A DNA stretch of 64,000 nucleotides, from NCBI RefSeq assembly GCF_044324785.1, contig NZ_CP172127.1; one strand, given 5' to 3'. Shown here piece after piece: positions 1 to 59,313 of the stretch (position 1 is the first letter of the stretch; each line of letters starts with the position of its first letter). The notes below the pieces were generated by a model, which saw nothing but the letters and a program-made list of their open reading frames with translations, ran no database searches and was not told the DNA's origin. The position numbers and the translations under genes are program-made. Origin of the DNA: Escherichia coli (lineage in GTDB: Bacteria > Pseudomonadota > Gammaproteobacteria > Enterobacterales > Enterobacteriaceae).

Positions 1-168
1 CCAATTGATGAGCAAAAGACAATAACGAATTACTTGAGTGCAGCAACGATAAACATTGATTTACTGATTCAAGAGACTGATAAATCGATTGATCTTCTAA
101 AAGAACACCGCACATCGCTGATCAACGCGGCTGTCACAGGAAAAATAGACGTCAGGGAGGCGGTGTAA
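1..168 (+). CDS. hsdS: Type I R-M specificity subunit HsdS, C-terminal fragment (5' end outside window)
   Basis: Frame open from position 1 to TAA at 166-168; translation ends ...EHRTSLINAAVTGKIDVREAV, the conserved C-terminal helix of HsdS; stop overlaps the hsdR ATG (TAATG). Confidence 0.7.
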   Translation, partial: PIDEQKTITNYLSAATINIDLLIQETDKSIDLLKEHRTSLINAAVTGKIDVREAV

Positions 169-3100
169 TGGCTGCACATCATGAAGTGCATTTTGAACAA
201 TATATTACCGAGCAGTTGGTGAACAATGGCTGGAAAGAAGGCCATTCCTGCCACTATGACCAGCAACGCGCCCTTTACCCGCAAGATGTCATGGATTGGG
301 TAAAGGCCACCCAGCCAGATGCCTGGCACAAACTGAATAAACTGCATGGTGTGAATGCCGAGCAGGTGCTGTTGGAGCGTTTGGAAAAAGCCCTCTCTTC
401 CCACAAAGCTGGCAGTAAAACAGGTGGCACCATTAATGTGCTGCGTAAAGGCTTTACCATTGCAGGTTGCGGCACGATTGCCATGGGCCAACGCAAACCC
501 GAAGATGCGCGCAATGAAGAGCGTATAGCCCGTTATGAGCACAACATTTTGCGCGTGGTGCGCCAACTGAAATATTGCCCGACTCGCGAGTGGGAAATTG
601 ACTTGGTGTTCTTTATCAACGGTCTACCCGTTGCCACCGCCGAGCTAAAAACCGATTTTACCCAGTCGCTAGAATCGGCGATTGCGCAGTACAAAGAGGA
701 TCGTCTGCCCGTTGACCCAAAAACCAAGCGTAAAGAGCCGCTGTTAACCTTTAAACGCGGTGCAGTGGTACATTTTGCCATGTCTGATACAGAAATCGCC
801 ATGGCGACCAAACTGGCGGGAGAAAATACCTATTTTCTGCCCTTCAATAAAGGCCATGATGGTTCTACCTCTGATTTGCCCGTACACATCAACTTGCCGG
901 GTGAAGATGGAGAGTATCCGGTCAGCTATTTTTGGCAAGAAATTGCCCAAAAAGATAATTGGCTACGCATTTTCTACAGCTTTGTGTATGTCGAAACCAA
1001 AGAGGTTGCCGATAGCAATGGCAAGGTTGAGCGTAAGGAAACACAGATTTTTCCGCGTTATCATCAGTTAGCCGCAGTCAACAAGATGATTGATGATGCC
1101 CGCCAGAACGGCGCAGGCATGCAGTATCTTTGTGAGCACAGCGCCGGTTCGGGAAAAACCTCTACCATAGCCTGGACGGCCCATGATTTGATTCGTTTAC
1201 GCAGCACCGATGGTAAAGCGGTCTTTAAATCAGTGATCATTGTGACCGACCGCACCGTGCTGGATTCGCAGTTGCAAGATGCGGTGCAACAGCTGGATCA
1301 TCAATATGGGGTGATTAAGGTGATTGATCGCGAAAAGAGCAGCGAGTCGAAATCAAAACAGCTGACTGAAGCGCTATTGACTGGCACGCCGATCATTGTA
1401 GTGACGATTCAAACCTTCCCATATGCGTTAGAAGCGATTCTGACCAATCAATCTTTGGCACAAAGTAACTTTGCGGTGATCATCGATGAAGCACACACCT
1501 CGCAAACAGGCTCTACAGCCAAAGGGTTACGCGCAGCGCTTACTCTAAACCTTAGCCCTCAAGAGTTGGAGCAAATGAGCATTGAGGACATTCTTACTAA
1601 GGTGCAAGAAGCGCGCGCCATGCCCAAGAACGTTTCGCACTTTGCTTTTACGGCAACACCCAAGCACAGCACCAAGATGTTGTTTGGCCGCCCGAAAGAC
1701 CCTAACCAACCAGTGTCAGATGACAATCTTCCTGAATCGTTCCACCTCTACACCCAACGTCAGGCCATTGATGAGGGTTTTATTCTTGATGTGCTGGAGA
1801 ATTACACCCACTACGATACAGCCTACAAAATTGGTGAGAACAATCTGGATGAGAAGCGCGTAGACAGCAAACAAGCTCGCCGCGCGTTGGCGCGCTGGAT
1901 GTCACTGCACCCAACCACGGTCAGCCAAAAAGTCGAATTTATTATTAAGCACTTCAAGGCCAATATCGCTCACCTACTGGAAGGTGAAGCCAAAGCCATG
2001 GTGGTCACATCGGGCAGGCCACAGGCGGTGAAATACAAGCTTGCTTTTGATAAATACATTAAAAAGCATGGTATTGAAGGTATCCAAGCCTTGGTTGCCT
2101 TCTCGGGCAAAGTCCCCGGCAAAGATTTGGGTGATGAAGACAGCCAAGACCCGCTAGAAATTGATTTCGATAAAGAGTACACCGAGTACAACTTAAACCC
2201 AGACACGCACGGGGCTGACCTGCGCCATGAGTTTGAGAAAACCGAATATCGCGTCATGTTAGTCGCCAACAAGTTCCAAACGGGCTTTAATCAACCAAAA
2301 CTGGTTGCCATGTATTTGGATAAGAAAATATCCGATGTAGAAGCGGTGCAAACGCTGTCTCGCCTAAACCGCACCTATCCAGGCAAAGACACAACCTTCG
2401 TGATTGATTTTGTTAACGATCCACAAACCATTCTCAATGCGTTCAAAAAGTACGACAAAGGCGCGCAGCTTAATGAAGTGCAAGATGTGAACGTCATCTA
2501 TGACATCAAAGATATTTTGGATGAACAGAACATATACAACCATCAAGATTTAGAGTTGTTTAAGCAAGCGCGTGGTAAATCGATTCTCGGCCAATCACCT
2601 GACAAAAAGTCACACGCGCACAAGAAACTGCTAGCTGCCACACAACGCCCTACCGATGTGTTCAACGTTAAGCTCAAAGAGCTGGTTGATGCTGCAAACC
2701 ATTGGGATCAGCAATACAACAAAGCGCACCTTGCGGGTGATGAAAAAGCGGCGAACTACGCAGAATCTCAGCGCAGTGATTTCACCAAGCAGCGCGAAGC
2801 ACTAATGCGTTTTAAGTCAGATTTAGCTCGATTTGTGAAGCACTATAGCTATATGGCGCAATTGATTGAGTTTGGTGATCCTGAACTGGAAAACTTTGCC
2901 GCGTTTGCTCATTTGCTATCACGTCGATTGAAAGGGGTAACACCAGAAAACATCGATCTCAGTGCACTGGTACTAGAAAAATTCAAAATCAAATACGACA
3001 AAGAGCCGCTTCCAGAAGCGTTTAATCAGGTACTTGAACCTATCCGCCCCAACTATAACGACCCTGCGGATCGTGAACAGGCATTTCTTGCCGATATCAT

Positions 3101-3404
3101 TCGCCGCCTAAACGAACTGTTTGGCGATGTCGGCGACGAACCCGGTCGCCGAAACTTTGCCAACGGTACTATTACGCGTGTCACCCAAAATCCAATTGTG
3201 GTTGAGCAGATAGAAAAGCACGACAAGTCGATTGCCCTCAAAGGCGACTTGCCGCAAGCGGTGAAGCAAGCCGTTGTGCAGGCTCTGCTGAAAGAAGGTG
3301 ATATAGCCCGAACGCTACTCAAAGACCCACAAGTTATGGCAAGTTATGTTGAGTTGATTTTTGACATGATGAAGCAAGGTGCAGAACAGGCGGCGGTGAA
3401 ATAA
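168..3404 (+). CDS. hsdR: Type I restriction enzyme R subunit HsdR (1078 aa)
   Basis: Long ORF with SF2 helicase motifs (EHSAGSGKTSTIAW Walker A, IIDEAH DEAH box) and N-terminal nuclease region typical of HsdR; immediately follows hsdS. Confidence 0.9.
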   Translation: MAAHHEVHFEQYITEQLVNNGWKEGHSCHYDQQRALYPQDVMDWVKATQPDAWHKLNKLHGVNAEQVLLERLEKALSSHKAGSKTGGTINVLRKGFTIAGCGTIAMGQRKPEDARNEERIARYEHNILRVVRQLKYCPTREWEIDLVFFINGLPVATAELKTDFTQSLESAIAQYKEDRLPVDPKTKRKEPLLTFKRGAVVHFAMSDTEIAMATKLAGENTYFLPFNKGHDGSTSDLPVHINLPGEDGEYPVSYFWQEIAQKDNWLRIFYSFVYVETKEVADSNGKVERKETQIFPRYHQLAAVNKMIDDARQNGAGMQYLCEHSAGSGKTSTIAWTAHDLIRLRSTDGKAVFKSVIIVTDRTVLDSQLQDAVQQLDHQYGVIKVIDREKSSESKSKQLTEALLTGTPIIVVTIQTFPYALEAILTNQSLAQSNFAVIIDEAHTSQTGSTAKGLRAALTLNLSPQELEQMSIEDILTKVQEARAMPKNVSHFAFTATPKHSTKMLFGRPKDPNQPVSDDNLPESFHLYTQRQAIDEGFILDVLENYTHYDTAYKIGENNLDEKRVDSKQARRALARWMSLHPTTVSQKVEFIIKHFKANIAHLLEGEAKAMVVTSGRPQAVKYKLAFDKYIKKHGIEGIQALVAFSGKVPGKDLGDEDSQDPLEIDFDKEYTEYNLNPDTHGADLRHEFEKTEYRVMLVANKFQTGFNQPKLVAMYLDKKISDVEAVQTLSRLNRTYPGKDTTFVIDFVNDPQTILNAFKKYDKGAQLNEVQDVNVIYDIKDILDEQNIYNHQDLELFKQARGKSILGQSPDKKSHAHKKLLAATQRPTDVFNVKLKELVDAANHWDQQYNKAHLAGDEKAANYAESQRSDFTKQREALMRFKSDLARFVKHYSYMAQLIEFGDPELENFAAFAHLLSRRLKGVTPENIDLSALVLEKFKIKYDKEPLPEAFNQVLEPIRPNYNDPADREQAFLADIIRRLNELFGDVGDEPGRRNFANGTITRVTQNPIVVEQIEKHDKSIALKGDLPQAVKQAVVQALLKEGDIARTLLKDPQVMASYVELIFDMMKQGAEQAAVK

Positions 3405-3958
3405 TGAATACTGCGTTTCGGGTTTTACTTACGTTCAATGCAACATCACTACTAGTGATTATCTTTGCGGTACAAAAAGGGTACTCACTCGGATATTTCT
3501 TTGGTGGTTTCGCTTGCTTCGATTGGATAGCAGCACTTCCGAACGCAGTATCATATTTACTCTATTTTCTTATCCCTGTTTTATCGACTGGATTGAGTAT
3601 TTGGCTGAGTAAGTATTTGGGTAAAGACGATTTTAAGGCGGGTGAAGTAGCGAGTATTGAGCATGCCAATAACAGCTTCCTACCAAGTTATTTGGGTTAC
3701 TTTTTCGTGGCGTTGAGCATTGGTAACTGGGAGACATTGTGGTTTGTTTATGGCGTTTTGTTTGTTTTTACTCTCTTATCGCAAGCACTCTACTTTAACC
3801 CATTGTTTTTACTGTTTGGTTATGAGTTTTATAACATTACAACCAAAAACGGAACGGCCATTTTCCTTATTAGCCGAGAGCGCTACAAGAAGCCAGATGA
3901 CATCGAAATATCATTGGCTTATCGAATCAATAATTACACATTTATCGAGCGAGGATAA
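3404..3958 (+). CDS. Multi-pass membrane protein (184 aa), first gene of candidate two-gene defence module (KwaA-like architecture, unverified)
   Basis: ATG overlaps the hsdR stop; 4-5 hydrophobic helices (LLVIIFAVQ, FACFDWIAALPNAVSYLLYFLIPVLSTGLSIWL, YFFVALSIGNWETLWFVYGVLFVFTLL, LFLLFGYEF); visibly AT-richer than hsdR. Confidence 0.6.
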   Translation: MNTAFRVLLTFNATSLLVIIFAVQKGYSLGYFFGGFACFDWIAALPNAVSYLLYFLIPVLSTGLSIWLSKYLGKDDFKAGEVASIEHANNSFLPSYLGYFFVALSIGNWETLWFVYGVLFVFTLLSQALYFNPLFLLFGYEFYNITTKNGTAIFLISRERYKKPDDIEISLAYRINNYTFIERG

Positions 3959-4800
3959 TGATGGACCATGTACTGGCACATATAAAAACTAGAGCAAAAA
4001 AACGCATTTTCAAATTGGTTTCTGATCAATCTCTTTTTGATACCGTCACAATCGACTTAAATGCCTGTATTCCATACAATCCAGACCATAACCTTGACGA
4101 AGACTCATGGTTTAAAATTGAAGACTTTAGTCAAAAAGAGTTTTGTATTGAACTGCTAAAAAAAGACTATGATTCAAAAGACTACGATGACTTAACCAAA
4201 GATAACTTCGCCAAGATCGCCTACTTATTTGCAATTCAAGGTAATGATTTTTACTTTCAAAAAATCACTCCAAGCCTATTCGTAAAACGCAAAACGCTTG
4301 TTTTTGGTGAAGCCGCAGAAATTGAGAAGAGCCAAACACGTTTAGTAATAAACGCCTTACCTGATGCAGTGTACTTCAAAGTGGCCGATACCTTGATATT
4401 CAAAAATCTGGCAACGATCTCGAGCATTTTTAAAGGTATCGATGAGTTGTACAAGGAAGCAACAAAAGAAGAAGTTGAGCAGTTTTTAGATGCACAGTTT
4501 ATAGAGTTGGGTAATGACTACAACGTAGATAGCGTCTCAAAACCTAATAGAAAACGTATTGGCCTTGCTATGGCAACACTTGATGCGATGTCTGCTGACG
4601 ATAAAGCTAACATGCTTGATTATATCGACGGTTACTGCGGTGAACAGAAGCTGAAATTCGATAAAGAAAATCAGAAGTTTGAAATATCTAATGACGATGA
4701 GTTGAAGTTACTGCTTTATGGCATTGAACAACGCTTCTATACGACCCCGTTTGGCAAAGAAAAAAGGCTCGCTAACTCTGTAACCGCTATGGATAAATAA
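3958..4800 (+). CDS. Soluble protein of unknown function (280 aa), second gene of candidate defence module (KwaB/DUF4868-like by architecture only)
   Basis: Start overlaps the upstream stop (TAATGATG); acidic, K/D/E-rich, no hydrophobic segments, no motif I recognise; AT-rich. Confidence 0.55.
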   Translation: MMDHVLAHIKTRAKKRIFKLVSDQSLFDTVTIDLNACIPYNPDHNLDEDSWFKIEDFSQKEFCIELLKKDYDSKDYDDLTKDNFAKIAYLFAIQGNDFYFQKITPSLFVKRKTLVFGEAAEIEKSQTRLVINALPDAVYFKVADTLIFKNLATISSIFKGIDELYKEATKEEVEQFLDAQFIELGNDYNVDSVSKPNRKRIGLAMATLDAMSADDKANMLDYIDGYCGEQKLKFDKENQKFEISNDDELKLLLYGIEQRFYTTPFGKEKRLANSVTAMDK

Positions 4801-4820
4801 TAGCCCATTATCAGTAACAT

Positions 4821-5870
4821 ATGAAGGTTGATTCAATGGCCGATAACATCCCACAAGCTCCTCAAGGTGAGTTTGTTCTTTTCACCAGTGCTGATGGTCA
4901 AACCCGCGTTGAGTGTCGTTTTGAGTCTGACACCTTGTGGCTTTCTCAGGCTGCAATGGCAGAGCTTTATCAAGTTAGCTCTCAAGCAATCACCCAACAC
5001 GTAAAAGCTGTCTATTCTGAAGAAGAGCTTGAGCAAATTTCAACTTGTAAGGATTACTTACAAGTTCAACTGGAAGGTGGCAGAGAAGTAAAGCGAAGCA
5101 TTCGTCACTACAGTCTTCCGGTTATTCTTGCAGTAGGATACCGAGTTCGCTCAACACGTGGCACCCAGTTCCGCCAATGGGCAACCAGAATGTTGCAAGA
5201 ATACCTAATCAAAGGATTCGTCATGGATGACGAGCGCCTGAAAAATCCGCCCATTGGCCATTCTGCTGTGCCAGATTACTTTGATGAAATGCTGGAACGC
5301 ATTCGTGATATCCGAGCTAGTGAGCGTCGCGTTTATCTGCGAGTCAAAGAAATCTTTACCATGGCTGCTGATTACGAGCCATCTAACCAAGAGACCAACC
5401 GCTTCTTCCAAACCATTCAGAATAAGCTGCATTATGCTTGTACGCATATGACGGCTGCTGAGCTTATCGCCAGCCGTGTGGATGCCAGTAAGCCGGATAT
5501 GGGCTTAACCAGCTATAAAGGCGATGAAGTGCGCAAGACAGACGTTACTGTTGCCAAGAACTATTTGCGTGAAGACGAAATCAAAGAGCTTAATCGCATC
5601 GTCAATATGTGGCTCGACTTTGCTGAAGACCAAGCACTGCGTCGCAAGCAGGTATTTTTACAGGACTGGGCCGATAAGCTTGACCAGTTCTTGAGTTTTA
5701 ACGATAGAGATGTATTAAACGGTGCAGGAAAAATCTCCAAGAAAGACGCTGATGACAAAGCGAAATTGGAGTTTGACCGCTTTGCCCAGCAGCGCCGTCG
5801 TTTAAAAGAAGCCGAAGGCGCACGGGCCAATATCGCAGCCCTCAAGGCCATACTAAAAAAAGATAAATAG
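4821..5870 (+). CDS. RhuM-family protein (alternative start at ATG 4836)
   Basis: N-terminal segment LFTSADGQTRVECRFESDTLWLSQAAMAELYQVSSQAITQHVKAVY matches the RhuM family N-terminal region as I recall it; 20 bp downstream of the preceding gene, same strand. Confidence 0.55.
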   Translation: MKVDSMADNIPQAPQGEFVLFTSADGQTRVECRFESDTLWLSQAAMAELYQVSSQAITQHVKAVYSEEELEQISTCKDYLQVQLEGGREVKRSIRHYSLPVILAVGYRVRSTRGTQFRQWATRMLQEYLIKGFVMDDERLKNPPIGHSAVPDYFDEMLERIRDIRASERRVYLRVKEIFTMAADYEPSNQETNRFFQTIQNKLHYACTHMTAAELIASRVDASKPDMGLTSYKGDEVRKTDVTVAKNYLREDEIKELNRIVNMWLDFAEDQALRRKQVFLQDWADKLDQFLSFNDRDVLNGAGKISKKDADDKAKLEFDRFAQQRRRLKEAEGARANIAALKAILKKDK

Positions 5871-5927
5871 CCGATATAGTACAGCCCTGATCTCTAATGA
5901 GTTGAGGGCTGTGTTGTAAGATCATAA

Positions 5928-6604
5928 CTATAAAGGATTATCCATCTTAAAATCGTCGATATCGCCTGTCATTTTGAATAGATTGGTGTCATTCCAACGG
6001 CACAGTTGTCTAACCCGCATTAGATTTGAGTTGGCTCTGCGGATTATTGAGAAAGCATCTTCAACAGCAGTAATCACCGATTTTTCCCAATCTTGTGCTC
6101 GGGTAAAGGTGCTTTGTGAATAGCGATAATTGCCCTCACGGGGGAGGTAATGGCTGATCACCTGGTATTTGTCAGAATTCTTTTTAGGTTTAAACTCGTT
6201 GTAAACCCAGAAAATTTCGAGTTTTTTGTTTCTTTGCCTTACACGACAACCAAAATGACCTGGGTAGCCTTCAGAGTTTTTACCTCTATGTGCAACGTTG
6301 TTCAGCCAGAACAAGTCTGCAATTTTTTGTGCTATGTAGAAGTAGCGGAGCTGTTCTATTTCGGTTGATTTATGGGTGTAGTGTAGATATTGCTCTGATA
6401 TGGTTAAGGAAAAAGCATTGCGTCGTCTTGATTAACATTTGTGCTATTGACAATAAAGGTTTCCCAAATATTAATTTGTGTTTCTAGTCCTTTAAATGAT
6501 TTTGAGAAGGCTTCTATGTACTCAGATTGCGGTTGATTTCCCCCATTTAGTGCTGCACCAAATGTAGCTATCTGTTGTTCTAAAAATGAATGATTTTTGG
6601 TCAT
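5928..6604 (-). pseudogene. Hypothetical AT-rich gene, apparently frameshifted (66-aa frame 6404-6604 continuing in +1 frame to 5928)
   Basis: Good SD (AGAGGA) before ATG at 6604; second frame opens just before the first frame's stop and runs ~155 codons with no ATG (ORF track used TTG at 6314); abutted by the IS3-family TIR. Confidence 0.35.
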
Positions 6605-6630
6605 TACATAATCCTCTGTGTGGTTGATAC

Positions 6631-6664
6631 TGCGTATTTTCATGAAAGGAGATCACTCAATAAC
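6631..6664. repeat. IS3-family left terminal inverted repeat (34 bp)
   Basis: Exact reverse-complement match to 8296-8329; begins TG. Confidence 0.8.
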
Positions 6665-6712
6665 CCCCCTGTGTCAGCATAGTTGTCGCCTCAATTTTTT
6701 AAGGAGATAACA

Positions 6713-7225
6713 ATGCCAGGACAACCAATACCAAATGAGCTCAAAGAAAAAGGACTGATATGGCTTTTGCCACCATACTGTTGGTCACACCGTCAGATAG
6801 CCCGGAAGCTGAAGATCAGTGCCTCAGTTGTATCAAAATGGAGATGTGAGTTAGTGGAGCAAGGACTTTTACCTGAAAATGAAAAGATTACCTCCGTTGA
6901 TGTTGAAGACTGGACACCGGAGCGTCGATTCTCAGTTGTTCTTGAGACGGCTACGCTGTCAGAAATGGAACTTGCTGATTATTGCCGACGCATGGGATTG
7001 TTTGTTGAACAGGTTAAAGAATGGCGGGCTATCTCAATTCAGGCGCATGAAAAGAAATTGACGGAAAATATCCGAACAGACAGGGCATTGCGTGACGCAA
7101 AAAATAAGTTACGAGAACTGGAGAAAGAGCTTAAGCGCAAAGATAAAGCTCTGGCGGAAGCAGCTGCCCTGCTTATATTAAGGGAAAAGTTCAATGCCCT
7201 CTGGGACAACAGCGAGGAAGACTGA
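6713..7225 (+). CDS. IS3-family transposase OrfA (HTH plus leucine-zipper region)
   Basis: SD AAGGAG 6 nt before ATG 6713; C-terminal heptad-like LRELEKELKRKDKALAEAAALLILREKF. Confidence 0.6.
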   Translation: MPGQPIPNELKEKGLIWLLPPYCWSHRQIARKLKISASVVSKWRCELVEQGLLPENEKITSVDVEDWTPERRFSVVLETATLSEMELADYCRRMGLFVEQVKEWRAISIQAHEKKLTENIRTDRALRDAKNKLRELEKELKRKDKALAEAAALLILREKFNALWDNSEED

Positions 7226-8252
7226 CCCCTCTCCTGGAGCGGCATAAAATTATTTCTCTTGTCCGTGAGGCCGTCGCCAACGGCGCCCGGAAAGGTCAGG
7301 CTTGTAGGTGTATCGGTATTTCTATTCGGACACTTCAGCGCTGGACTAATGGCAACATCATCACCACGGACCGAAGATCCGATACTGTAAACAGCTCTCC
7401 CCGAAATAAGCTGTCAGAAGCGGAAAGATTGCGAATACTGGAGTTGTGCAACTCTCCAGAGTTTGCATCCTTGCCTCCAAATGTGATCGTACCAACTCTG
7501 GCAGACAGAGGTATTTATATTGCTTCTGAATCAAGTTTTTATCGTGTACTGAAATCAGCCAAGCAGTTGAAGAAACGATCCCGTGAATGCCAGTATAAAC
7601 TGGCCTGATGTACTCAGGGCCGTTGCACCGAATCAAGTCTGGAGTTGGGACATCAGCTATTTGCCGTCCTGGGTCAGAGGCCAGCATTTTTACCTCTATA
7701 TGATCGTCGATATTTACAGTCGCAAAATTATTGCTGCTGAGGTATTTGCCAGCGAATCTGGAAAACATGCAGCAGAACTACTCCAGCGTGCAGTATGGAA
7801 TGAAAAATGTTCATCCAACAATCTGGTACTCCATTCTGATAACGGTGGTCCCATGCGCAGTGACACGTTGTTGGCGAAAATGTATGCGCTTGGTGTGCTA
7901 AGTTCTTATTCCCGGCCAAGAGTCAGTAATGATAATCCTTACTCAGAATCTTTGTTCCGGACTCTCAAATATTGTCCCTGGTGGCCTGAGAACGGTTTTC
8001 GCACTATTGATGATGCCAGAGTATGGGTAAACCAGTTTTGTAAACTGGTACAACTTTGAACATAAGCACAGCGGGATCAAATACGTCACGCCAGCCGAGC
8101 GTCATCAAGGTAATGATATGAAAATACTGGCGGCCAGAAAAGCAGTATACCAGCTGGCACGCGAACAGCATCCTGAACGTTGGGGAAAGCATCTACGTAA
8201 CTGGGACTACATATCAGAAGTCTACCTGAATCCAGAAAAAGAGGCTGCATAA
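7222..8252 (+). pseudogene. IS3-family transposase OrfB (DDE integrase core), interrupted by extra frameshifts/stops
   Basis: Integrase-core sequence split over three frames (...CQYKLA stop; VWSWDISYLP...SDNGGPMRSDT...KYCPWWP; HSGIKYVTPAERH... ending 8252). Confidence 0.55.
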
Positions 8253-8295
8253 CGTAATTTTATTACAAAAGGCGACAACTACCTTGAAAAACGCC

Positions 8296-8329
8296 GTTAT
8301 TGAGTGATCTCCTTTCATGAAAATACGCA
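8296..8329. repeat. IS3-family right terminal inverted repeat (34 bp)
   Basis: Exact reverse complement of 6631-6664. Confidence 0.8.
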
Positions 8330-8866
8330 CCATGACCATACCCTCTGCAACCTGACCATCGTAGTCACGCAGCGTCAGTGAACCTCCGAACAACTGTTTT
8401 ACCCGGTACATCGCTGTTTCCGCTATCGAACGACGGTTATAATCTGTTGTCCATTTACACCGGGCATTACTTCCGGTCAGCCGCTGATTAGCCACTGCAC
8501 GGTTACGGTCTTCGTATTCACCGGGCTAGTAACCCGCACCTTTTCGGGAAGGGGTAAGCGCGCTGATTTTCTTACGCCTCAGTTCATCGTGACAGAGTCG
8601 GGGGTCGTAAGCCCCGTCTACCGCTGCAGCCATGATTTTTCTGTGAGTCTGTTGGAGAAGCCCCGGGAAGGCTTCTGAGTCCGTGACGTTGTTCAGCGAC
8701 AGGTCTGCACAGACAATTTCATGTGTGTTGCCATCAACAGACAGATGCGACGCCCCTCTTTGCCGTGCTTTTTGGCTTTCCTTTCGCCTTCCCCAAAGAC
8801 TTTTAGCCCGTTGGAATCAATCACGAGGTGTATGATTTCACCCCGGGTGGGGATTTATGTATAAGA
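8330..8866 (-). pseudogene. IS903-like (IS5-family) transposase remnant, C-terminal half only
   Basis: Minus-strand translation gives ...HLVIDSNGLKVFGEGE...THEIVCADLSLNNVTDSEAFPGLLQQTHRKI...RSIAETAMYRVKQLFGGSLTLRDYDGQVAEGM, recognisable as IS903-type transposase; in-frame stops present; cut by the IS3 TIR and lacking the N-terminal half and IS ends. Confidence 0.6.
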
Positions 8867-9032
8867 AACAGCGTATTCGTGAGGGGTGAGCCATGAATAA
8901 AATCCCTTTTGAAGTATTAATCCACTCTGAAAATGCATTAATCTGCGCAAAGGAAATGGACGCGTTATTAATTAAGTTAATTGATATTCCGGAAAGTGGC
9001 GATAAAACATATTCGATGACGGACAGGCGACA

Positions 9033-9305
9033 ATGTGGTTATCTGTGCTGGCGTTTGGCAGACAGGCCGAAGCACTGGCCAGACACCAGAAAGGCGAACT
9101 GGTAAGCGTGGCAGGTAACATGCAGGTCAGCCAGTGGACAGGGCAGAACGGGAAAACGCGGCAGGGACGGCAGGTTATCGCAGACAGCGTAATCAATACT
9201 CAAACGGTGCGGCCAGGAGGAAGCAGACGCGAAACCACAGGTACACAGGGTAATCAGCCACCAACGGGAGGCGACGCCACTTACGGAGATGATATACCCT
9301 TATGA
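9033..9305 (+). pseudogene. ssb: Single-stranded DNA-binding protein (plasmid/ICE-type SSB) remnant lacking its N-terminal part
   Basis: ...VLAFGRQAEALARHQKGELVSVAGNMQVSQWT...GDATYGDDIPL resembles the SSB OB-fold C-terminal half and acidic DDIPF-type tail; upstream frame is closed. Confidence 0.55.
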
Positions 9306-9322
9306 ATTAAGCGGGGCGCAAC

Positions 9323-9643
9323 ATGAACAACAGCACACTGAAGAGCCGGACAATAAGCGACGCGACAGCGGAAGAACTCGAGAGCAGGGGACTGTGGCGA
9401 CGTGCTGCCAGAAGGTGGCAGGATGTGATGATTACTCTTGAGAAAGACAGTCACAGACAGCTTGCAGTAATGAGAGCAAGGGAATGTATCAGGAAGGCAA
9501 AACGCCCGATACCTGAAAGCCGTATTGATATTCATACAGTCAGAAAGGCCGCAGACAGGACAATACAAAAAATGGGGCTACCGTCGCTTACTGATGAAAT
9601 ATGGCGCGATTACCCTGATAGCGTTAACGATGACGGTTATTAA
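9323..9643 (+). CDS. Hypothetical protein (106 aa)
   Basis: ORF directly after the SSB remnant; no recognisable motif. Confidence 0.25.
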   Translation: MNNSTLKSRTISDATAEELESRGLWRRAARRWQDVMITLEKDSHRQLAVMRARECIRKAKRPIPESRIDIHTVRKAADRTIQKMGLPSLTDEIWRDYPDSVNDDGY

Positions 9644-9926
9644 CTGGCGGGGGAAACACGATACCAGCGGGCGTGACTCGGGAGAATATATACCGCTGGT
9701 GGAACATTACCGGCCCTGATGGCTGGTGGCGTGCGTTACGACCTGAAAGACCATCCATGCGGGAAGGTGACACAGGAGCACCTGGCGAACGCGGGGAAGC
9801 GACTGGATGAGATTAAGAAAAAACAGCAGGAGCGCAGAAAAAGTAACCGTCTCATTAAAACGTCTTTCGCCTCCCTTTCCTGTTTCCTATGCTAATGTCC
9901 ATTTTCGCAGTAAAAGGACATTTACG

Positions 9927-10440
9927 ATGAATGCACGAAAGGCGGTACTGGCAGATAATCCGGAATTGATCCTGCGTTTGCTACAACTGAAATTTGACGA
10001 GACACTGTCGTACCCGCGCATTTCTGCACAGACCGGTGTCAGCAAAACCGCTATTTTTTCTCTGGTGAGGCGATTTCATCAGGTATTCACTGACGGGCAT
10101 CTTTCTGGTGAATATTCCTGCGTGCAACTGACCGGGCTCTTTTCCCGGGGCGATAATATTCAGCCCCGACAGTGACTCAGCCTGTAAAAACAGAGAAAAC
10201 CCGTCGGAACCGATTTTCACCAGAGTAAAAATGGAGACTTGTTCAGCAAACTCTTTTACCCGGAGCCTGTGTGGCCCAGATTGCACGAGAGTCTGGCATC
10301 AATGATAATGTTATTTTCAAATGGCTCAGACTCTGGCAAAACGAAGGGCGTGTTTCGCGGCGTCTTCCGGTAACAACCACTTCTGACGCAGGCGTTGAAT
10401 TATTACCTATGGAGATAACGCCGGATGAGCAGAAAGATCC
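9927..10440 (+). pseudogene. IS-type transposase N-terminal HTH remnant (two HTH segments in different frames; family uncertain, possibly IS630-like)
   Basis: MNARKAVLADNPELILRLLQLKFDETLSYPRISAQTGVSKTAIFSLVRRF (SD AAAGGA upstream) and, in another frame, MAQIARESGINDNVIFKWLRLWQNEGRVSRR; truncated where the ugpB remnant begins. Confidence 0.3.
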
Positions 10441-10980
10441 GATGATTCCCCTACCGCCAGCTTTTCGCCTGCGCCGGTATACGTTTCTTTATCTTTGCCC
10501 TGCATCACCCACAGGCTGGCTCCGCCGATAATGGCGTTTTGTGGTGCATCTTTCGCGTCAGCGTCGTAAGGCATCATGCCTACGCCGTAGTTGAATTTGG
10601 CGTACTCGCGAATGTTGGCAAGAGAACCGGAAGAGGCGGTGGTCATCGCGCAATCACCTCTATAGAACTTCTCGGTGGATTCATCCTTACGCCCGACGTA
10701 GATGAAGTCGCCCTTCTTGTTCATCTCCTCGAGCATGACGATGTGTTTCACCTGCTCCGGCTTGTTGAACTCCAGCACCGCGTCCGTGGCGTCAAAACCG
10801 TTGTTTTTGCTGGCAAACGGCAGACCGTTCCTGGCGCTAAAGTTTTCCAGTTGTATCCACCTCTTTGCCCATTTCCCCTTCCATAGAGTTCCAAAACGGA
10901 ATGGTCGTCACTGCCTGTGCATTGCCCATTAACGCCAGTCCGAGCACCAGTGATGAAGCTGTATAATGTAACGGTTTCAT
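10407..10980 (-). pseudogene. ugpB: sn-glycerol-3-phosphate-binding protein UgpB remnant (internal deletion, frameshift, truncated C-terminus)
   Basis: Minus-strand ATG at 10980 gives [42 protein letters not shown] (UgpB signal peptide/N-terminus), then after a frameshift jumps to ...[42 protein letters not shown]...[18 protein letters not shown] and terminates. Confidence 0.7.
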
Positions 10981-11735
10981 CGTTTATCTCTCTTGCTTGT
11001 TGTACCTGATGTGCAAATTCACTCGTTTTATGCTCGCGGGATTACATATCATGCCCGAATTGCAGAAAAATAACTTTTTATTACATGTGTAAGACAGTAA
11101 AACCTCAGAAAGATGACAGTGTGGTGCCGGCGCGGGTGAGGAAAAATGGAAGATGGGGAATGTATAAGCGGGAAAATAGGAGGGCCTGTGGATTGTAGAT
11201 AATGTGCTCATCGTTTTCATGCCGGATGAGACATAAACACTTTTATCTGAGCATTTCTATGTATTCGGACAGTTGTTCTTGGCATCCAATGGTGCAGGTT
11301 CTGTAGTGTGTGGTGGTAGCAATAGCCTCAGCTTCATTACAATATTTATTATCTCAAACATTCAAATGTCCTTGGCCCACTTTGATAGTCACTTTGTCGT
11401 GGTTATTATGTCTTTCCTTTTCCTAAAGCCCCATTATCTGTGCTGCAGCTTTCCCTCCATCAACGAACCAACAACCAGCAATGCCTGTCCCCCATAACAG
11501 CCCGGAAAATGGCACATTCTCAGATGATTTATCCCGCGAGCTATCCCGCCTACAGCTAATCGACCTGTTTAATACATCTTGACAGTCTGCTGGCAAGGTT
11601 ACCCTTCCCAATATTGTCCGTTTTTAACATATCTAATACGAGCCCCCATCAAATATGCTTCGTGTTCACTGTAAGTGACTAAAAGTGCTGTCTGCCCTGC
11701 CTCATGCAAAATATCACGAACTTCACGGCTCAGTC

Positions 11736-12237
11736 CTACCCTTGTTTTTTATCCAAGCTGGAAAATGGTTCATCTAGCAACAGGATATCTGGATTTGGAA
11801 CCAGTGACCTTGCAAGGGCAATACGTTGCTGCTGACCTCCTGAAAGTTCATGAGGATAGCTGTCTGAATAGTGGAATAAATCCACCATTTTCAACAGTTC
11901 TGTAACTCTGGTTCGCTGTACATCTCTCGGCAGTCTTCTCAGACCAAAGCCACGTTTTGTGAAACTGTAAGGTGGGGAAAGAGCGCATATTCCTGAAAGA
12001 CTATACCGACATGACATTTCTCCGGCGGAAAATGCATATCTGCGCTGGCCACACAATGCTGTGATACAAAAATTTCCCCTTGTTCAGGCGCTCAAAACCA
12101 GCTACAGCACGTAGTACTGTTGTTTTTCCACAACCTGATGTACCAAGCAGACATGCCAGTTCACCTTTACAGACTGACATACCCCCCGCCCCGCAATACA
12201 GGATATGGGCTATTGGGATAAACAACATGGACATCAT
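11736..12237 (-). pseudogene. ABC transporter ATP-binding protein remnant (frameshifted)
   Basis: Walker A LLGTSGCGKTT and signature/Walker [16 protein letters not shown]...[12 protein letters not shown] lie in two different frames. Confidence 0.55.
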
Positions 12238-12267
12238 TAATACATAAAGCTGTTTCTTCAGACATAA

Positions 12268-12868
12268 TCAATCCTCTGATTTCAGTCTTTCAGCTGGAAC
12301 AAACAAAATAACCGGAAATGTCCCTGCAAGAACAATCATTAAAGCAGAGATGGCCCCTTCTTCAAAAGTTCCACGGGCTGCTTCAGCATAAAGAAGTGTT
12401 ACTGGCAGTTCTTTCATCGCATCAGTGAAAACCAGCAGGGCACTGCTCACCAGAGCAACACAGGAAAGTGAACCCGAACAAAAGTTCCTGTACCATTTTC
12501 TCCCAGCAGACGTGAGGCTTGTTCCAGTGACTCTGGTATACGTCCCAGCCGGACATCAAGTGCGCCGATGGCTATTGCCTGAAATCGCATCGTACAGCAA
12601 ATCACCAACAGGACACCGACAGACATTAAAGGTAACCCCCTGTAATCCAGTAGTTCCGCCAGCCAGCGGTCATTTAGGGAGTCAGAAAACCAATCGCCAG
12701 AATCGTGCCTGGAAAGGCATAACCCAGCGACGCCACTCTCATCACACCGCGCCTGAACAGTGGCATAGCGTTGAGGAATTCCGGGCATTCCAGACTACGA
12801 GCAGACTGACAAAAATTACGACAAAGCGTTGAAGGAAGCCAGCGCGCGGACTGACAGGACTTTACCAT
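12268..12868 (-). pseudogene. ABC transporter permease remnant (split over three frames)
   Basis: Hydrophobic permease-like fragments incl. ...AMKELPVTLLY... and ...ALDVRLGRIPESLEQASRLLG... in successive frames. Confidence 0.45.
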
Positions 12869-12918
12869 AAAAACACAGGCTAACCGCGCCTGCGTTTTTA
12901 ATGACGGATGAAACAGAA

Positions 12919-14451
12919 TCAGGTGCCGATTATGCCGCCGTCGGCTTTTACGATAACGACAGTTGAGGAGCGCGGACGACCAGCCTTATCGCCGTCAGGC
13001 CAGCTTGATACTGCCGTCGGATGCTGCGGATCGCTAAGCCCTTCGCTTGGCTCGCCAGGGTGCTGGATGTTAATAAACAGCGTCCGGTTATCCGGAGTGA
13101 ACGCGATGCCGGTGATTTCGCAGCCGCGCGGGCCGGTCAGGAAGCGGCGGAACTCATTGGTACCGGGGATCGTCGCCACCATCTGGTTGTTGCCCATGCC
13201 TTTGTAATCTTTAATATTTATGGTTGATGACGACACGTCGGTCTGGATCCATAGCACGCCGCGGTGATCAAAGCTCAGGCCATCGGCGCTGCCGAATTCC
13301 GCACCCTTCATGCTGCCTTTGGTTTCCAGTTTGTCTGTATCGGTGCGACCGCCCATCACAAGAATATCCCAGGCAAACTGCAGCGCGGTCGGGTCACCGT
13401 TATGCTCCAACCAGTGAATGATGTGGCCGTAAACGTTTTTGGCGCGCGGGTTGGCCGCATCCACTGGCGCTTTTCCTTCCTTACCGCGATCGCTGTTGTT
13501 GGTGAGCGTGCAGTAAACGCTGCCGGCGTGATATGGATCGACCGCAATCCACTCCGGGCGGTCCATTTTAGTGGCCCCCACGGCGTCTGCCGCCAGACGG
13601 GTTTTAATCAACAGGTCGCCCTGGTTTTCAAACCCTTTACTGGCGTCGAGCCCATTTTGTCCGAACACCAGCGGTAGCCACTCGCCTTTGCCGTCGTCGT
13701 TAAATTTCGCCACGTACAGAGTGCCTTTTTCCAGCAGGTGCATGTTGGCTTTGCGATCCTGCGGGTTGAATTTTCCTTCCGAGACAAATTTATATATGTA
13801 TTCGAATTTCTGGTCATCGCCCATATAGACCACAACGCGGTTATCCGGGGCAATTGTCACCGCTGCGCCTTCGTGTTTGATGCGACCAAGCGCGGTGTGC
13901 TTGCGCGGCACTGAATGCGGATCGTATGGATCGATTTCCACCACCCAGCCGAAGCGGTTCGGCTCGTTCGGCGTGGCGTCGACGCTGAACCTTTTATCCA
14001 CTTCGTTCCAGCGGTAAGAGTCGTCGCTCCCGCTGATACCGTAACGTTTTTCCAGCGGGTTCATCTCTGCTTTTTTTACGAAAATATCGGACCAGTTCTC
14101 TTCACACGTCAGATAGGTGCCCCACGGCGTAAATCCGTTGGCACAGTTCTGCATGGTGCCGAGAATGATTTCGCCTTTCGGATCGTCAACTGTTTGCATC
14201 AGTGGGTTATGCAGCGCCGGACCGGTGATTTTCATCGGCGTGTTAACGGTGATGCGGCGTGCGAACGATGACGGGCGCACCACTTCCCAGCCCAGGGGCA
14301 CTTTTTTTACTTCAATGACCGACACGCCCATCGCGTTCTGGCCTTTAAGAGCTTTATCGGCGCTCCAGTTGGCATCGCCATCTTTAAACAGTAGACCGTT
14401 ATCGATGTATTCATGGTTTATGGCAAGCAGGCCGTGATCGGAGCTGTTCCC
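12919..14451 (-). pseudogene. phoX: PhoX-family (DUF839-like) secreted phosphatase gene, 3' part, separated from its 5' part by the prophage
   Basis: Reading frame continues exactly from the fragment at 52793-53245 across the target-site duplication (...SLPQGGN | SSDHGLLAINHEY...); the first 16 codons of ORF 12919-14499 are phage-end derived. Confidence 0.65.
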
Positions 14452-14500
14452 TGATGCGCCGCGCGATAAATGCACTCTATCTTGTGCGATAAATGGCATC
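14452..14500. repeat. Prophage left terminus with two putative transposase-binding motifs
   Basis: GATAAATG at 14465-14472 and 14488-14495; mirrored at identical offsets at the right end. Confidence 0.6.
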
Positions 14501-14529
14501 CACGCGGCGTTTCATTATTTGAAAAAGAA

Positions 14530-15102
14530 TTACATTTCAGGTTGCGTTATGACAGTCCCAACAGGGTGGTAGCGGTAGATCGTTGACAGTCCAATATCAT
14601 AGATAATTGCCAGCCGCTTTCTGTCATACCCTTTCTGGAGCAATCTTGCGATCTGCTCATGCTGCTCCTTCGTCAGTTTCGGGCGACGTCCTCCAACTCT
14701 TCCTTGTGCTCGCGCAGCAGCCAGTCCTGCCAGCGTGCGCTCAACTATCAGTTCACGCTCCATTTCTGCCAGTGCACCCATCATATGAAAAAAGAACCTT
14801 CCCATCGGAGTGCTGGTATCGATTGAATCCGTCAGACTGCGAAAATTGACACCTTTTGCGCGTAGCTCTTCTGTGAGAGCAATGAGGTGTTTCATTCTTC
14901 TACCCAACCGATCCAGCTTCCAGACCACCAATGTATCCCCTCTTTTAAGGCACTTTAAAGCGCGTTTCAGGCCTGGTCGTTCCGACTTGGTTCCGCTCAT
15001 TTTGTCCTCAAAAATCTGTTCACATCCTGCGCACATTAATGCATTGCGTTGCAAATCTGTGTTTTGGTCATTTGTTGACACACGTATGTAGCCAATCAGC
15101 AT
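14530..15102 (-). CDS. pin: Site-specific DNA invertase, Hin/Gin/Pin serine recombinase family
   Basis: MLIGYIRVSTNDQNTDLQRNAL...GDTLVVWKLDRLGR...MGALAEMERELIVERT is the invertase catalytic domain plus C-terminal HTH; adjacent to tail-fibre cassettes. Confidence 0.9.
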   Translation of the reverse strand: MLIGYIRVSTNDQNTDLQRNALMCAGCEQIFEDKMSGTKSERPGLKRALKCLKRGDTLVVWKLDRLGRRMKHLIALTEELRAKGVNFRSLTDSIDTSTPMGRFFFHMMGALAEMERELIVERTLAGLAAARAQGRVGGRRPKLTKEQHEQIARLLQKGYDRKRLAIIYDIGLSTIYRYHPVGTVITQPEM

Positions 15103-15147
15103 TAAAAATACTCCCTTTTGAGTGGTTAAAGTACTGAGATAATGTGG

Positions 15148-15173
15148 GGAGGATTTGAGAGATAAACGTTGGT
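15148..15173. other. Putative invertase crossover site A (gix/pix-like), core AAACG-TT-GGTTT
   Basis: Core AAACGTTGGTTT at 15155-15166 at the start of the conserved ~200-bp fibre box; identical inverted core at 16779-16790. Confidence 0.45.
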
Positions 15174-15686
15174 TTAGGAGAAGGCTCGGCGCTACCCGTT
15201 GGTGTGCCTGTTCCGTGGCCCACCGCCACACCGCCAGCAGGCTGGTTAAAGTGCGACGGGCGCGCCTTTACAAAAGAACAATATCCTGTTCTGGCCAGAG
15301 TCTACCCGACCCTCCGTCTTCCCGATTTACGCGGTGAGTTTATCCGTGGATGGGACGACGGGCGCAAAGTTGATACAGGACGTAAGTTGCTGTCCGCACA
15401 AGGGGCAACGCTGTTAAGAACAGCAATGCTGGATTATTATAACCAGGACACTACGGGAACCTCGGGGATAGTCGGCATGGGATTCAACAATGAAGATTCC
15501 ATTACAGACCTTCGTGAGGGCAGCTTTAAAATGCCGGACGGGACAACATTCAGCGATCCTGTCGTGGCAATGTCAGACAATGGTATGCAGGCTACTATTC
15601 TGACCTCTATCAGAAGCGGGTATGCGAAGGGTATCACTGTCAGACCCCGTAGCATTGCACTTAATTACATTGTGAGGGCAGTTTAA
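15150..15686 (+). CDS. Tail-fibre C-terminal cassette 3 (start-less alternative variable domain)
   Basis: Frame opens after TGA at 15147-15149 with no ATG; encodes the conserved box GEGSALPVGVPVPWPTATPPAGWL...RGEFIRGWDDGRK then a unique C-terminus ending NYIVRAV. Confidence 0.7.
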
Positions 15687-52792: not shown

Positions 52793-53245
52793 GTTCCCGC
52801 CCTGCGGCAGGCTAAACCACGCCATGCCGTCGTGGTGCATCCCGGCCTGCGCCGCCTGTTCTTCCGTGGTGTTGCTACCGTCGGTTTTAAAAACCGGCAG
52901 ATTTCCGGCAATCCCGGTGGCGTCGCCCCATTTGTAGAAGGGCTTCGCGATGTATCCTTCCGGCACGATAACGGTATCTTCCGTGGAAACCGGCAGGCTG
53001 GTGAAACCGAGCGTCGTCGCTTTGCCGAGGTTACCGCTTGCTTTGGAGACCACTTTCGCCAGCGCGTTTTCCTGTTTCAGCAGAAATGGGAACGCTGCCG
53101 CGGCACCGGCGACCGTGCCTGCCTGTAACAGACGGCGGCGTGACAAATAGACTTCCGCCACCTGCGAAAACGCGCGGTTATCGCTCGGGTTACTGATTTC
53201 TTCACTATGCTCACGTTTGAATAAAGTTTTTAACGGTCTGCCCAT
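52793..53245 (-). pseudogene. phoX: PhoX-family secreted phosphatase gene, 5' part (Tat signal), separated from its 3' part by the prophage
   Basis: Twin-arginine motif SRRRLLQAGTVAGAAAAFPF; frame terminated by TGA supplied by the prophage terminal TGATCA. Confidence 0.65.
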
Positions 53246-53667
53246 TGCGGTTTCCTTTCAAAAAATCGATTTCAAGGGGAATCATTTTTATGCACGTGAG
53301 TCTACGGAAAGATTGTTACGGAAATATAACAATTGTCATAAAAAACCGGCGATAAAATCATCTATGGTCGGGACGCGGTTTCAGGTATGATGTGAGGCTA
53401 GAATTCTGAACGCTCTCTTTTGTTGAGCATATATGGACGTCCCAGATGAGGCAAGTACTGGTTCGATGCGGTTTGCGACCATATATCCGGCGTCGTTAGT
53501 AGGTTCAATGACCTGCGCCATGATGTTATCCGGGCCCTATTTCCTAATCACTACACCGGTATTTGATTACCCAGGTCAACTTCAGACTGTTACAGGGGCG
53601 GTAGCCGTTATCTCATCAGTGAATGTAAACTCAGTTAAAAATATTTTCTATAACTTACTGTTTTTCT

Positions 53668-55426: not shown

Positions 55427-56621
<1,195 letters not shown>

Positions 56622-56981
56622 TTAACGTTATCCGCTGACGTCGATATTCCCGTGGTGAGAGATAACCTAACGCACTATGCGGATGGTTTTCATTGTAATG
56701 CTCGAACGCCTCTGCAAGGTTATGCAATGCCGTTATTACATTCAGTTTCGGCATGAACGCGATGTAGTCTTCATTCACGTTTTCACGAACCTTTCTGCCA
56801 TTCTATTGCTCTGAGGGCTACTGACTGCCGTCGTGCAGGGCTCCAGATTCAACTCTCTGGCGAATTGCCGTGTTTCATGAGCCGTATAAGCCGAACCGTT
56901 ATCCGTCCGCCACTGGATTGCTCGTTCCGGTCCTTTATCGCCAAAGCGTTTTTCTATCGCTCCTAACATCACATCCTGCAC
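56622..56981 (-). pseudogene. IS2-like (IS3-family) transposase OrfB C-terminal remnant, frameshifted and cut by IS5
   Basis: ...[45 protein letters not shown] and ...[43 protein letters not shown] in two frames; reading continues into the IS5 end. Confidence 0.55.
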
Positions 56982-57403
56982 TGTCGGCTTTATCGTAACC
57001 TCCCGTACTGGTCACGGGCAGACTGTTCATCATGTTAAACCCAGCCGCTGTCAGATCATGCACCGGCCGGATGGCGGGCTGACCTGCCCCGCCGCGCTGC
57101 TGCCCGCCAATCCATTTCTTACCTTCCTTCCCGGTGGCCTGACGTCCGGCCTCGTCCCCTTTCACCGCATCACCGTCACCGCTGTTCACCACCTTCTTGT
57201 ACTCTTCCAGCATCGCTGGCCTGCGTCCATTTGCTGCGATCAGAAAAGTCCATCATCCGTTTTGCCATGTTCTGGCAGTTCAGTTACGCCTTGTCGAAAG
57301 CCACATTCGCCTGCAGCACACCGTTGGTGATCATGTCGTACAGGCCGGGGTTGGCACGCTGTATCACCATCGCCGGCAGACTGGCAGCGGCGCCGGTCGC
57401 CCC

Positions 57404-57745
57404 CTAAATCACATCCCCCATCAGATTTTTAAAGCCGTCGGTCAATCCGTTAAGATGATTACCCACCGTGGTCTTCAGGTCAAAGTTGCCGCACATCAGA
57501 TCGCTGCTCCAGCCCAGGTCCATACCCAGCTTCTGCATGTTGCTGCGCGTGGCCAACTGTGAGATCACCGAGCCGCCACCCAGCGTATAGAACAGTTTGT
57601 CGGATACGGCGCCATCCACGGATTTCCCGTAACCGAACGTGCTGTCATTCAGTTTCGGCAGGGAAAGAAGATCAGCCATCGCCGGAATACTGCAGTACAG
57701 CATCACACTCAGTGCCACCATACCTGTTTTCATCTTCATCATCAT
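57404..57745 (-). pseudogene. Conjugative-transfer TraH-like protein, N-terminal remnant
   Basis: Signal peptide plus ...DLKTTVGNHLNGLTDGFKNLMGDVI; ORF ends prematurely relative to TraH-size proteins. Confidence 0.35.
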
Positions 57746-57751
57746 GGTTCC

Positions 57752-58726
57752 TTAAAAATTCGTACTGCCAAGGAATCGCTGCCCGCGCTTTTCGAAGCAG
57801 CTGTAAGGCTGCCACAGTGCAAAGGCTGCATTACCGTTCTCCGCCGCCTGGTGTTCACCATCCGGGAAAACGGCACAGGAACGCGACACTGACGGCGTCA
57901 GTCGCTGCCATTTGTGATTGCGGGTGCCGGTGTTTTCCTCCACCGCCTCCGGGGGCCAGTAGCCGTCACGTTTCACGCCCTTAACCTCCCTGTAGACATG
58001 CGACTCCCCCATCCGCGTGATAATGTCGGCCACCCGCTGAGCCCCCACCGCCGCGGCCCGGTCATCATCGCTCTGCATCACAAAACCACTCCGGTGATAA
58101 ACGCTCCCCCACATGTTTTTATCGGCCTAGCTGCCAATCTCGCGTTTGCCGGGAACCTGTGCCTCTGGATACAGGGATTCAGGTAATCCCGTTCGCTAGA
58201 CGATGCTGTCCAGGGTACTGAGGAAATAGGCCATGGCCGGTGTCACCGGTGAATCACAGCTGAATCCGGGTACCATCCCGCCGATAAGCTGTGTGGCCGG
58301 ATGACCCAGCGCATCTGCATATTTGAAACGAATTGCTGAACGGCGCTTCCCCTGTATTTTCATATCCGCCGGATTTCCCCCGCCGGCACTCAGCCCGGAC
58401 AGGCCGTCAGTGATGGCATTCTCCGGGCCACCTGCGGTCCGGCTGACCAGCGACATCTCTTTCCAGGGATTACCACCCGGTGCCGTATAGGTGGAAATAA
58501 CCACTTCCGGGATGAAATGTGTCACCTTCACGGAAATTCTGACCGTACAGCCAGACGCGCTGCAGTAAAGCCAGTAACAAATCCCGCTGACACGCCAGCT
58601 GATATAGTCCGGTGCCGCAGTACTGGCGATAATGCTGGCGGTGTTCAGTGATACAGACGCCAGGGGCAGTGATGCCACACTCAGTAACAGCACGCCGGTA
58701 CGCAGACGACATTTCAGGGACATCAT
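57752..58726 (-). pseudogene. Conjugative-transfer TraU-like protein, split by frameshift
   Basis: Two consecutive ORFs (58196-58726, 57752-58114) with Cys-rich segment GICYWLYCSASGC and TraU-like C-terminal pattern. Confidence 0.35.
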
Positions 58727-58839
58727 GGCTGCACTCCTCCCTCAGCACGGATTTTCCCGGCCATCACCACATCCATGGTGCCGTAAACCACCTCACTGTC
58801 ATCAAACACCACGGCAGGGTATTTCTTCACGCCCAGCGA

Positions 58840-59118: not shown

Positions 59119-59313
59119 CGTACACCTCAGTCAGATATTATCTGACTGACAGCGTGCGAAGAAAGCGCTCATTTATCAGCAATAAATTAAAAACGGGATT
59201 AAAAAATTACGGTGGGATCCGGGGAAGTGTATCTGCCAAGCATAACAGACAGTCTGTGATTATACCCGGCCTTTCACAAAGCCGGGGAACTGATTCATAC
59301 CAAGTGGTGATTT

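Follow-up and report, generated by a model that had tools for sequence, protein, structure and literature searches.

A dense cluster of broken genes and insertion sequence fragments in Escherichia coli as the probable interior of an acquired genomic island

The stretch analysed here, referred to as the window, comprises 64,000 nucleotides (nt) of Escherichia coli DNA (contig NZ_CP172127.1 of assembly GCF_044324785.1). This report concerns positions 5928-14451, an interval crowded with broken genes and fragments of insertion sequence (IS) elements, together with the prophage that adjoins it on the right. Ten of the approximately 12 genes in the interval are broken, and only perC and orfA of an IS3-family element are full length. 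A preliminary description of the window had pointed to a high density of pseudogenes and IS fragments at this location. Our analysis bears this out and indicates that it was slightly understated: every item listed there as disrupted was checked and holds, and proQ/finO is a further broken gene that was absent from that list. Pfam and NCBIfam were used to identify families in stop-to-stop translations joined by X, and intact homologues served for comparison. The list of open reading frames (ORFs) for the window contains none longer than 180 amino acids (aa) at 5900-12900, and GC content swings between 0.41 and 0.56 across the interval. No tRNA was identified in the whole window with ARAGORN, and an Rfam scan of the same sequence returned 0 RNA families at gathering score.

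A near-identical relative is strain 702/18 (L001), and here the Prokaryotic Genome Annotation Pipeline (PGAP) annotates 7 of 13 features in the interval as pseudogenes, followed by 33 of 54 features in the next 50 kb of the island in which the interval lies. In core samples of the same genome (127 kb, consisting of 27 kb to the left of the pheV tRNA gene and two 50-kb samples), 0 pseudogenes were found among approximately 115 coding sequences (CDS). The difference between the interval (7/13) and the core (0/115) is significant (Fisher exact p=1.8e-8). The features of the interval and of the prophage and displaced gene end to its right are as follows.

5928-6643, minus strand: mobI-like gene, split by a frameshift (N-terminal ORF 6404-6643, C-terminal ORF 5928-6314)
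6631-8329, plus strand: IS3-family element with perfect 34-nt terminal inverted repeats beginning TG
6683-7225, plus strand: IS3 orfA, intact
7147-8252, plus strand: IS3 orfB, broken by +1 insertions at 7601 and 8034
8330-8851, minus strand: transposase fragment of an IS903-like element (IS5 family), codons ~125-304, cut at both ends, with an internal stop and frameshifts
9009-9305, plus strand: ssb remnant without the first 37 of 141 codons (start of the OB fold); intact according to PGAP
9323-9643, plus strand: perC-family regulator, apparently full length (Pfam PerC 2-89 of 90, E=6.6e-28)
9719-9895, plus strand: C-terminal fragment of proQ/finO without ~110 N-terminal codons of 166; intact according to PGAP
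9927-10531, plus strand: IS66-family tnpA pseudogene with a frameshift and an internal stop (partial match to NCBIfam IS66_access_TnpA; PGAP annotation of identical sequence)
10458-11238, minus strand: ugpB remnant, codons ~195-326 fused to codons 1-42 and upstream DNA, 3' end cut
11599-12265, minus strand: ABC transporter ATPase pseudogene (227-aa type) with at least two frameshifts; tblastn high-scoring segment pairs in three frames
12268-12822, minus strand: C-terminal third of an Fbp/PhnV-type ABC permease, 5'-truncated, with two frameshifts; three frames by tblastn
12919-14451, minus strand: 3' part of phoX, 510 codons
14452-52792, no strand assigned: Mu-like transposable prophage of 38,341 bp with ends TGAT...ATCA
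52793-53245, minus strand: 5' part of phoX, about 150 codons

The gene at the left end of the interval, previously described as an orphan gene with a frameshift, is indeed frameshifted and can be identified as a split mobI-like gene. The MobI domain (Pfam PF19456) is complete (match positions 4-116 of 116, E=4.6e-30), and MobI homologues (149-198 aa; P0215, with 66-73% identity, and P0218) are continuous through '...NQDDAILFALSTSE...', spanning both ORFs. Specifically, the N-terminal part is aligned by tblastn in frame -1 (6637-6410) and runs into a stop at 6404-6406, the C-terminal part is aligned in frame -3 (6413-5937), and the frameshift is positioned in a T5 run at ~6408-6416. The uninterrupted ORF of about 180-200 aa found in homologues is not present, and in the PGAP annotation one half is a 66-aa hypothetical protein and the other a 128-aa "MobI(A/C)". 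The gene has the domain of the MobI family of SXT/R391 and IncA/C type, but it shows just 27% identity to IncA/C MobI, and derivation from an IncA/C plasmid was rejected for this reason. The left module to which it belongs (168-6643: hsdR, two unknown ORFs, rhuM and the split mobI) resembles the cargo/mobilisation end of SXT/IncC-mobilisable genomic islands, and the expected origin of transfer (oriT) region at 6315-6630 is cut at 6631 by the IS3-family element.

This element has the overlapping orfA and orfB, the helix-turn-helix (HTH) domains, the rve and rve_3 domains and the TG inverted repeats of the IS3 family. It is 97% identical to an intact plasmid copy (orfA 180 aa, orfB 367 aa), against which its lesions were defined, and the two extra +1 insertions in orfB indicate that it is not a functional copy. 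No target-site duplication was found flanking the element, which marks the boundary between two island modules. The adjacent IS903-like fragment shows 86% nt identity to IS903B over 8326-8851 (with 16 gap columns), matches Pfam DDE_Tnp_1 at 22-192 of 200 over two frames and is a pseudogene according to PGAP. An enterotoxigenic E. coli plasmid (CP122798.1, L016) carries at 1501-3862 the same IS3-family element (97%) directly beside an IS903B copy; this pair echoes that of the window and may reflect a shared composite origin.

The next group of genes is truncated with the exception of perC, the sole intact non-IS gene of the interval. The ssb remnant matches only positions 45-101 of 104 of Pfam SSB and aligns to residues 38-141 of a 141-aa SSB (genome L007), while the proQ/finO fragment matches only positions 65-108 of 109 of Pfam ProQ and aligns to residues 111-159 of the 166-aa protein of the same genome. 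The intact ssb/proQ module matched by these fragments adjoins DUF927 primase and Icd-like genes, a context suggesting that the ssb/perC/proQ group is of P4-like satellite type. It is followed by the gene that had been flagged as a disrupted "IS-like HTH" and that was confirmed as broken: it is an IS66 tnpA with a frameshift and an internal stop, and tnpB and tnpC of the element are absent.

The ugpB remnant consists of two pieces separated by an internal deletion of 456 bp. Codons ~195-326 (10464-10859) are 95.5% identical to K-12 at the nt level, and codons 1-42 with 256 bp of the ugp upstream region (10855-11238) are 84% identical; both pieces are Escherichia-like. A 47-aa "hypothetical protein" called by PGAP at 10837-10980 is the UgpB N-terminus. 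To its right, the ABC transporter ATPase matches Pfam ABC_tran and NCBIfam models of PhnT2/PotA/FbpC type and is labelled "frameshifted" by PGAP, and homologues of the permease fragment show up to 84% identity. The closest intact operons to this remnant (encoding a binding protein, a fused permease and a 227-aa ATPase) have just 66-69% nt identity; apart from these distant operons and short metagenomic fragments, no intact close relative was found. The ABC remnant is one of several fragments of different origin that make up the interval. The possibility that it was the ancestral neighbour of phoX was considered and rejected: in the Cronobacter-type locus an unrelated metNIQ-like transporter comes after phoX, and homology to that locus ends 96 bp beyond the gene. 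The contexts in Franconibacter differ as well.

The intact PhoX allele found in relatives covers the Pfam PhoX domain from 2 to 515 of 515, and in the window this gene is split at 14451/14452. A 38,341-bp insertion follows position 14451, so the earlier statement that the prophage had knocked out phoX was correct. phoX and about 100 bp on each side are 91.5% identical (96% for the protein) to a Cronobacter-type chromosomal locus, with homology stopping at 12823, exactly where the permease fragment starts. Of 5426 complete E. coli genomes, 94-98 carry the phoX allele (at least 99% nt identity), about twice the number with the decayed block from ssb to the ABC genes (49-53), and about 1.8% of the complete genomes have phoX intact. 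A 112-bp stretch of the gene has 91-93% matches to plasmid and chromosomal "alkaline phosphatase" sequences in about 375 records. phoX is the only cargo gene of possible interest in the interval, and it is knocked out in this strain.

The inserted prophage encodes a 589-aa DDE transposase with an rve domain, a 397-aa AAA_22 ATPase and a Gin-type invertase. It is flanked by the target duplication GTTCCC at 14446-14451 and 52793-52798 (6 bp, or 5 bp with the end shifted by one base). The combination of a DDE transposase, a MuB-like ATPase, TG...CA ends and a short duplication, with no att site, identifies it as Mu-like, and the ORFs tested did not include a tyrosine integrase. The DDE transposase and AAA+ ATPase, the Gin-type invertase, the TG...CA ends and the short intragenic target duplication are all shared with Mu-type phages. 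In contrast to Mu, for which a 5-bp duplication is canonical, the apparent duplication here is 6 bp, and early genes are found on the plus strand and late genes on the minus strand. The closest record is Escherichia phage PhiKM (PQ738613.1), with 98.7% nt identity over 83% of the first 24.5 kb of the prophage. The junction between phoX and the prophage was found in 0 of 5426 complete E. coli genomes.

Thirteen genomes contain at least 80% of window positions 5000-15500 in one place with 99.9-100% identity; four of these are 100.0% identical over 9452 bp and nine more are 99.9% identical. These complete E. coli genomes were assembled independently of one another, and they differ in laboratory, host and country of origin. 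702/18 is 100% identical to the window over 1-6960 and 8035-14451, with differences confined to the one IS3 element, and a second relative, SFE8 (L015, NZ_CP051219.1), shows 2 mismatches and 0 gaps over 6156 bp. The block from ssb to the ABC genes as a whole was found in 49-53 of the 5426 complete genomes. These comparisons bear on whether the frameshifts and truncations could be sequencing or assembly errors such as homopolymer miscalls, for which the preliminary description had proposed resequencing as a check. The mobI shift does fall in a T5 run and both IS3 orfB lesions are single-base insertions, as would be expected of miscalls, but at least 13 independent complete assemblies show the same indels, with 99.9-100% identity, and resequencing would therefore be unlikely to remove them. 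Furthermore, each IS3 allele is present in several assemblies, and a miscall could not generate the majority of the lesions, which are large truncations, IS junctions or a 456-bp deletion. An artefactual origin is consequently so improbable that it can be given almost no weight. Most lesions are older than the present strain, since other strains, and a different island context, have them in identical form.

The earlier caution that gene calls in this interval should not be trusted is valid in itself, but its cause is real truncation rather than read error. PGAP calls five fragments intact (the two mobI halves, ssb, proQ and the 47-aa UgpB N-terminus). The main value of these observations lies in annotation hygiene, as the labels of such fragments spread as RefSeq WP_ proteins.

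Window positions 1-14451 are collinear with many complete E. coli genomes, including that of 702/18. In 702/18, the corresponding island begins at tRNA-Phe (pheV) beside yqgA and has a P4-type integrase at the junction. This integrase is followed by a raffinose operon, IS3, IS1, relB, hsdMSR, rhuM, the interval and approximately 45 kb of IS debris with iha, which places the interval 22 kb to the right of the tRNA-Phe/integrase. SFE8 holds window positions 8296-64000 at 99.9-100% identity (10945-41112 in SFE8). It shares sequence only from the right inverted repeat of the IS3 element (8296) rightwards, and its left part contains ISEc12 and other genes in place of hsd-rhuM-mobI-IS3. Homology breakpoints were located at 8296, 12823 and 55428, and IS3, IS903-like, IS66 and IS5 elements lie between unrelated fragments, as in a mosaic. 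IS families represented in the island are IS1, IS3, IS5, IS21, IS66, IS110, IS256 and IS630. Consistent with island cargo, iha is found at 60052-62139, and the block is variably present among complete genomes.

GI-pheV, the genomic island at this tRNA gene, has been described as a mosaic with modules separated by IS elements (PMC11537424), and pheV as a hotspot of insertion and rearrangement whose patchy modules recur elsewhere in other genomes (PMC2617782). The 702/18 block shares with the islands described in these studies (Nhu et al., PLoS Genet 2024, PMC11537424; Touchon et al. 2009, PMC2617782) the tRNA-Phe and P4-type integrase, the IS-separated mosaic structure, iha and the recurring modules. 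The present variant (raf operon, hsdMSR, rhuM, mobI, phoX and iha) is not among the types from uropathogenic E. coli and sequence type 131 (UPEC/ST131) detailed in PMC11537424, and the term "phoX" was not found in the text of that paper. Partial transposases in pathogenicity islands have been interpreted as remnants of stepwise assembly (PMC7545054). SHI-2, one of the pathogenicity islands rich in such partial transposases, differs from the island described here in its site (selC) and cargo (aerobactin), and in the present case decay also affects the non-IS cargo ssb, proQ, ugpB, the ABC importer and mobI.

Erosion of the block continues in individual lineages. The IS3 lesion at 7601 is common to the window and 702/18; in the lineage of the window there is an extra +1 insertion at 8034, and that of 702/18 has acquired a 52-bp insertion as well as a 1-bp deletion in orfA. 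To the right of the prophage, an intact IS5 element (55428-56621, 338-aa transposase, ends GGAAGGTGCGAA...) replaces 842 bp that contain an SgcJ/EcaC-family oxidoreductase gene in 702/18 and SFE8. This event is a strain-specific insertion with an adjacent deletion. The entry of the Mu-like phage into phoX is a further strain-specific change.

Based on these results, we interpret the interval as lying inside an E. coli genomic island that was acquired horizontally and is located at pheV in close relatives, and its broken genes as inherited wreckage of an ordinary and known kind (probability of approximately 0.86). Unrelated scraps of DNA would have been joined stepwise by IS activity and adjacent deletions. 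On the left, these would be the tail of a mobilisation/restriction module (hsdMSR-rhuM-mobI) and an IS3-family element inside an IS903-like copy; in the middle, a truncated ssb/perC/proQ module from a P4-like satellite, a piece of IS66 tnpA and an Escherichia-like piece of ugpB with its upstream region; and on the right, the end of an Fbp/PhnV-type ABC importer operon and a Cronobacter-like phoX. The broken genes would not be needed by the host, and because of this, frameshifts, truncations and IS hits would not be purged and would be inherited with the block. Transposition of the Mu-like phage into phoX struck the last intact cargo gene of the interval. We infer the order of these assembly events, and likewise that the source genome has a core no less intact than that of its relatives. 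The decay reflects the status of this DNA as acquired and dispensable, in an insertion site that is permissive. Such mosaic, IS-riddled decay of pathogenicity islands is already known, and the interval is a clear and unsurprising case of stepwise IS-mediated assembly.

Two other explanations of the decay were raised in the preliminary description. One is that the whole host lineage is under relaxed selection, with a reductive evolution like that of Shigella, so that the interval would be a sample of genome-wide decay. Shigella and Yersinia pestis have undergone genome-wide reductive evolution, with IS expansion and pseudogenes throughout core metabolic genes. The interval resembles these genomes in that IS elements and genes with frameshifts or truncations are locally dense; many IS families are present in the island, and a further IS5 and a transposable phage have entered the strain of the window. 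The sampled core of 702/18, a close relative with the same island, is nevertheless without pseudogenes over 127 kb, so that frequent core pseudogenes are not observed and decay is limited to acquired DNA within the pheV island. The lesions are also common to strains that carry the block in another context, and are thus a feature of the block itself, not of its host. Curated E. coli genomes have just 22-95 pseudogenes each in total (PMC2617782). The proposal of a host lineage under relaxed selection is therefore not upheld, and we consider it very unlikely.

The other explanation is a recombination hotspot, here taken as an intrinsically hyper-recombinogenic locus that actively generates lesions, as opposed to a permissive dump in which lesions persist. 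Part of this idea stands, as pheV is a documented hotspot of insertion and rearrangement (PMC2617782, PMC11537424) and unrelated fragments abut at IS ends in the interval; the absence of a target duplication around the IS3 element is likewise what would be expected after recombination between IS copies or an adjacent deletion. The locus appears, however, to be permissive rather than intrinsically recombinogenic. Recombination does not produce point frameshifts such as those in mobI, IS3 orfB and the ABC genes, the 99.9-100% conservation of the block among carriers indicates slow turnover, and Touchon et al. attribute rearrangement at such hotspots to permissiveness and not to recombinogenicity (PMC2617782). 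A locus that itself generates the lesions is thus improbable, if somewhat less so than decay of the whole lineage, and inheritance of wreckage within an acquired island accounts for the observations better.

Several points weigh against the interpretation as island wreckage. The baseline consists of three non-random core samples (~115 CDS) that come from a relative rather than from the source genome. The window itself contains neither tRNA-Phe nor the integrase nor a core gene, and the position of the island in the source strain is inferred from relatives. That the lesions are neutral is an assumption, and the spread of the block among lineages is judged from hosts, countries and two island contexts and not from a phylogeny. 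In SFE8, the block is found in an integrase-bearing island directly after ynjA and not at pheV. Finally, the three adjoining scraps at 10458-14451 and 52793-53345 are of different origins and all concern phosphorus scavenging (ugpB, a PhnV/PhnT- or Fbp-type importer and phoX), a theme that a purely random scrap-heap does not predict. Regarding the SFE8 location, no tRNA is annotated at the ynjA junction, which could represent a second insertion site or a chromosomal rearrangement.

The phosphorus theme allows a further, speculative suggestion: the three scraps may descend from a phosphate-starvation islet that was assembled horizontally, with the Cronobacter-like PhoX as an uncharacterised accessory fitness gene of E. 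coli that was its last working part and that has been inactivated by the phage in this strain. We regard this as unlikely, and the occurrence of the three scraps together could instead be a coincidence.

A dense cluster of pseudogenes in a single window should not be taken as a sign of genome decay throughout a lineage; in the case described here, such a cluster marks the interior of an acquired island. Further along the window, between phoX and iha (56622-59470), remnants of an integrating conjugative element were identified, with genes matching TIGR03756 and TIGR03757. These genes contain internal stops in the identical sequence of relatives, which indicates that the high pseudogene density continues to the right of the prophage.

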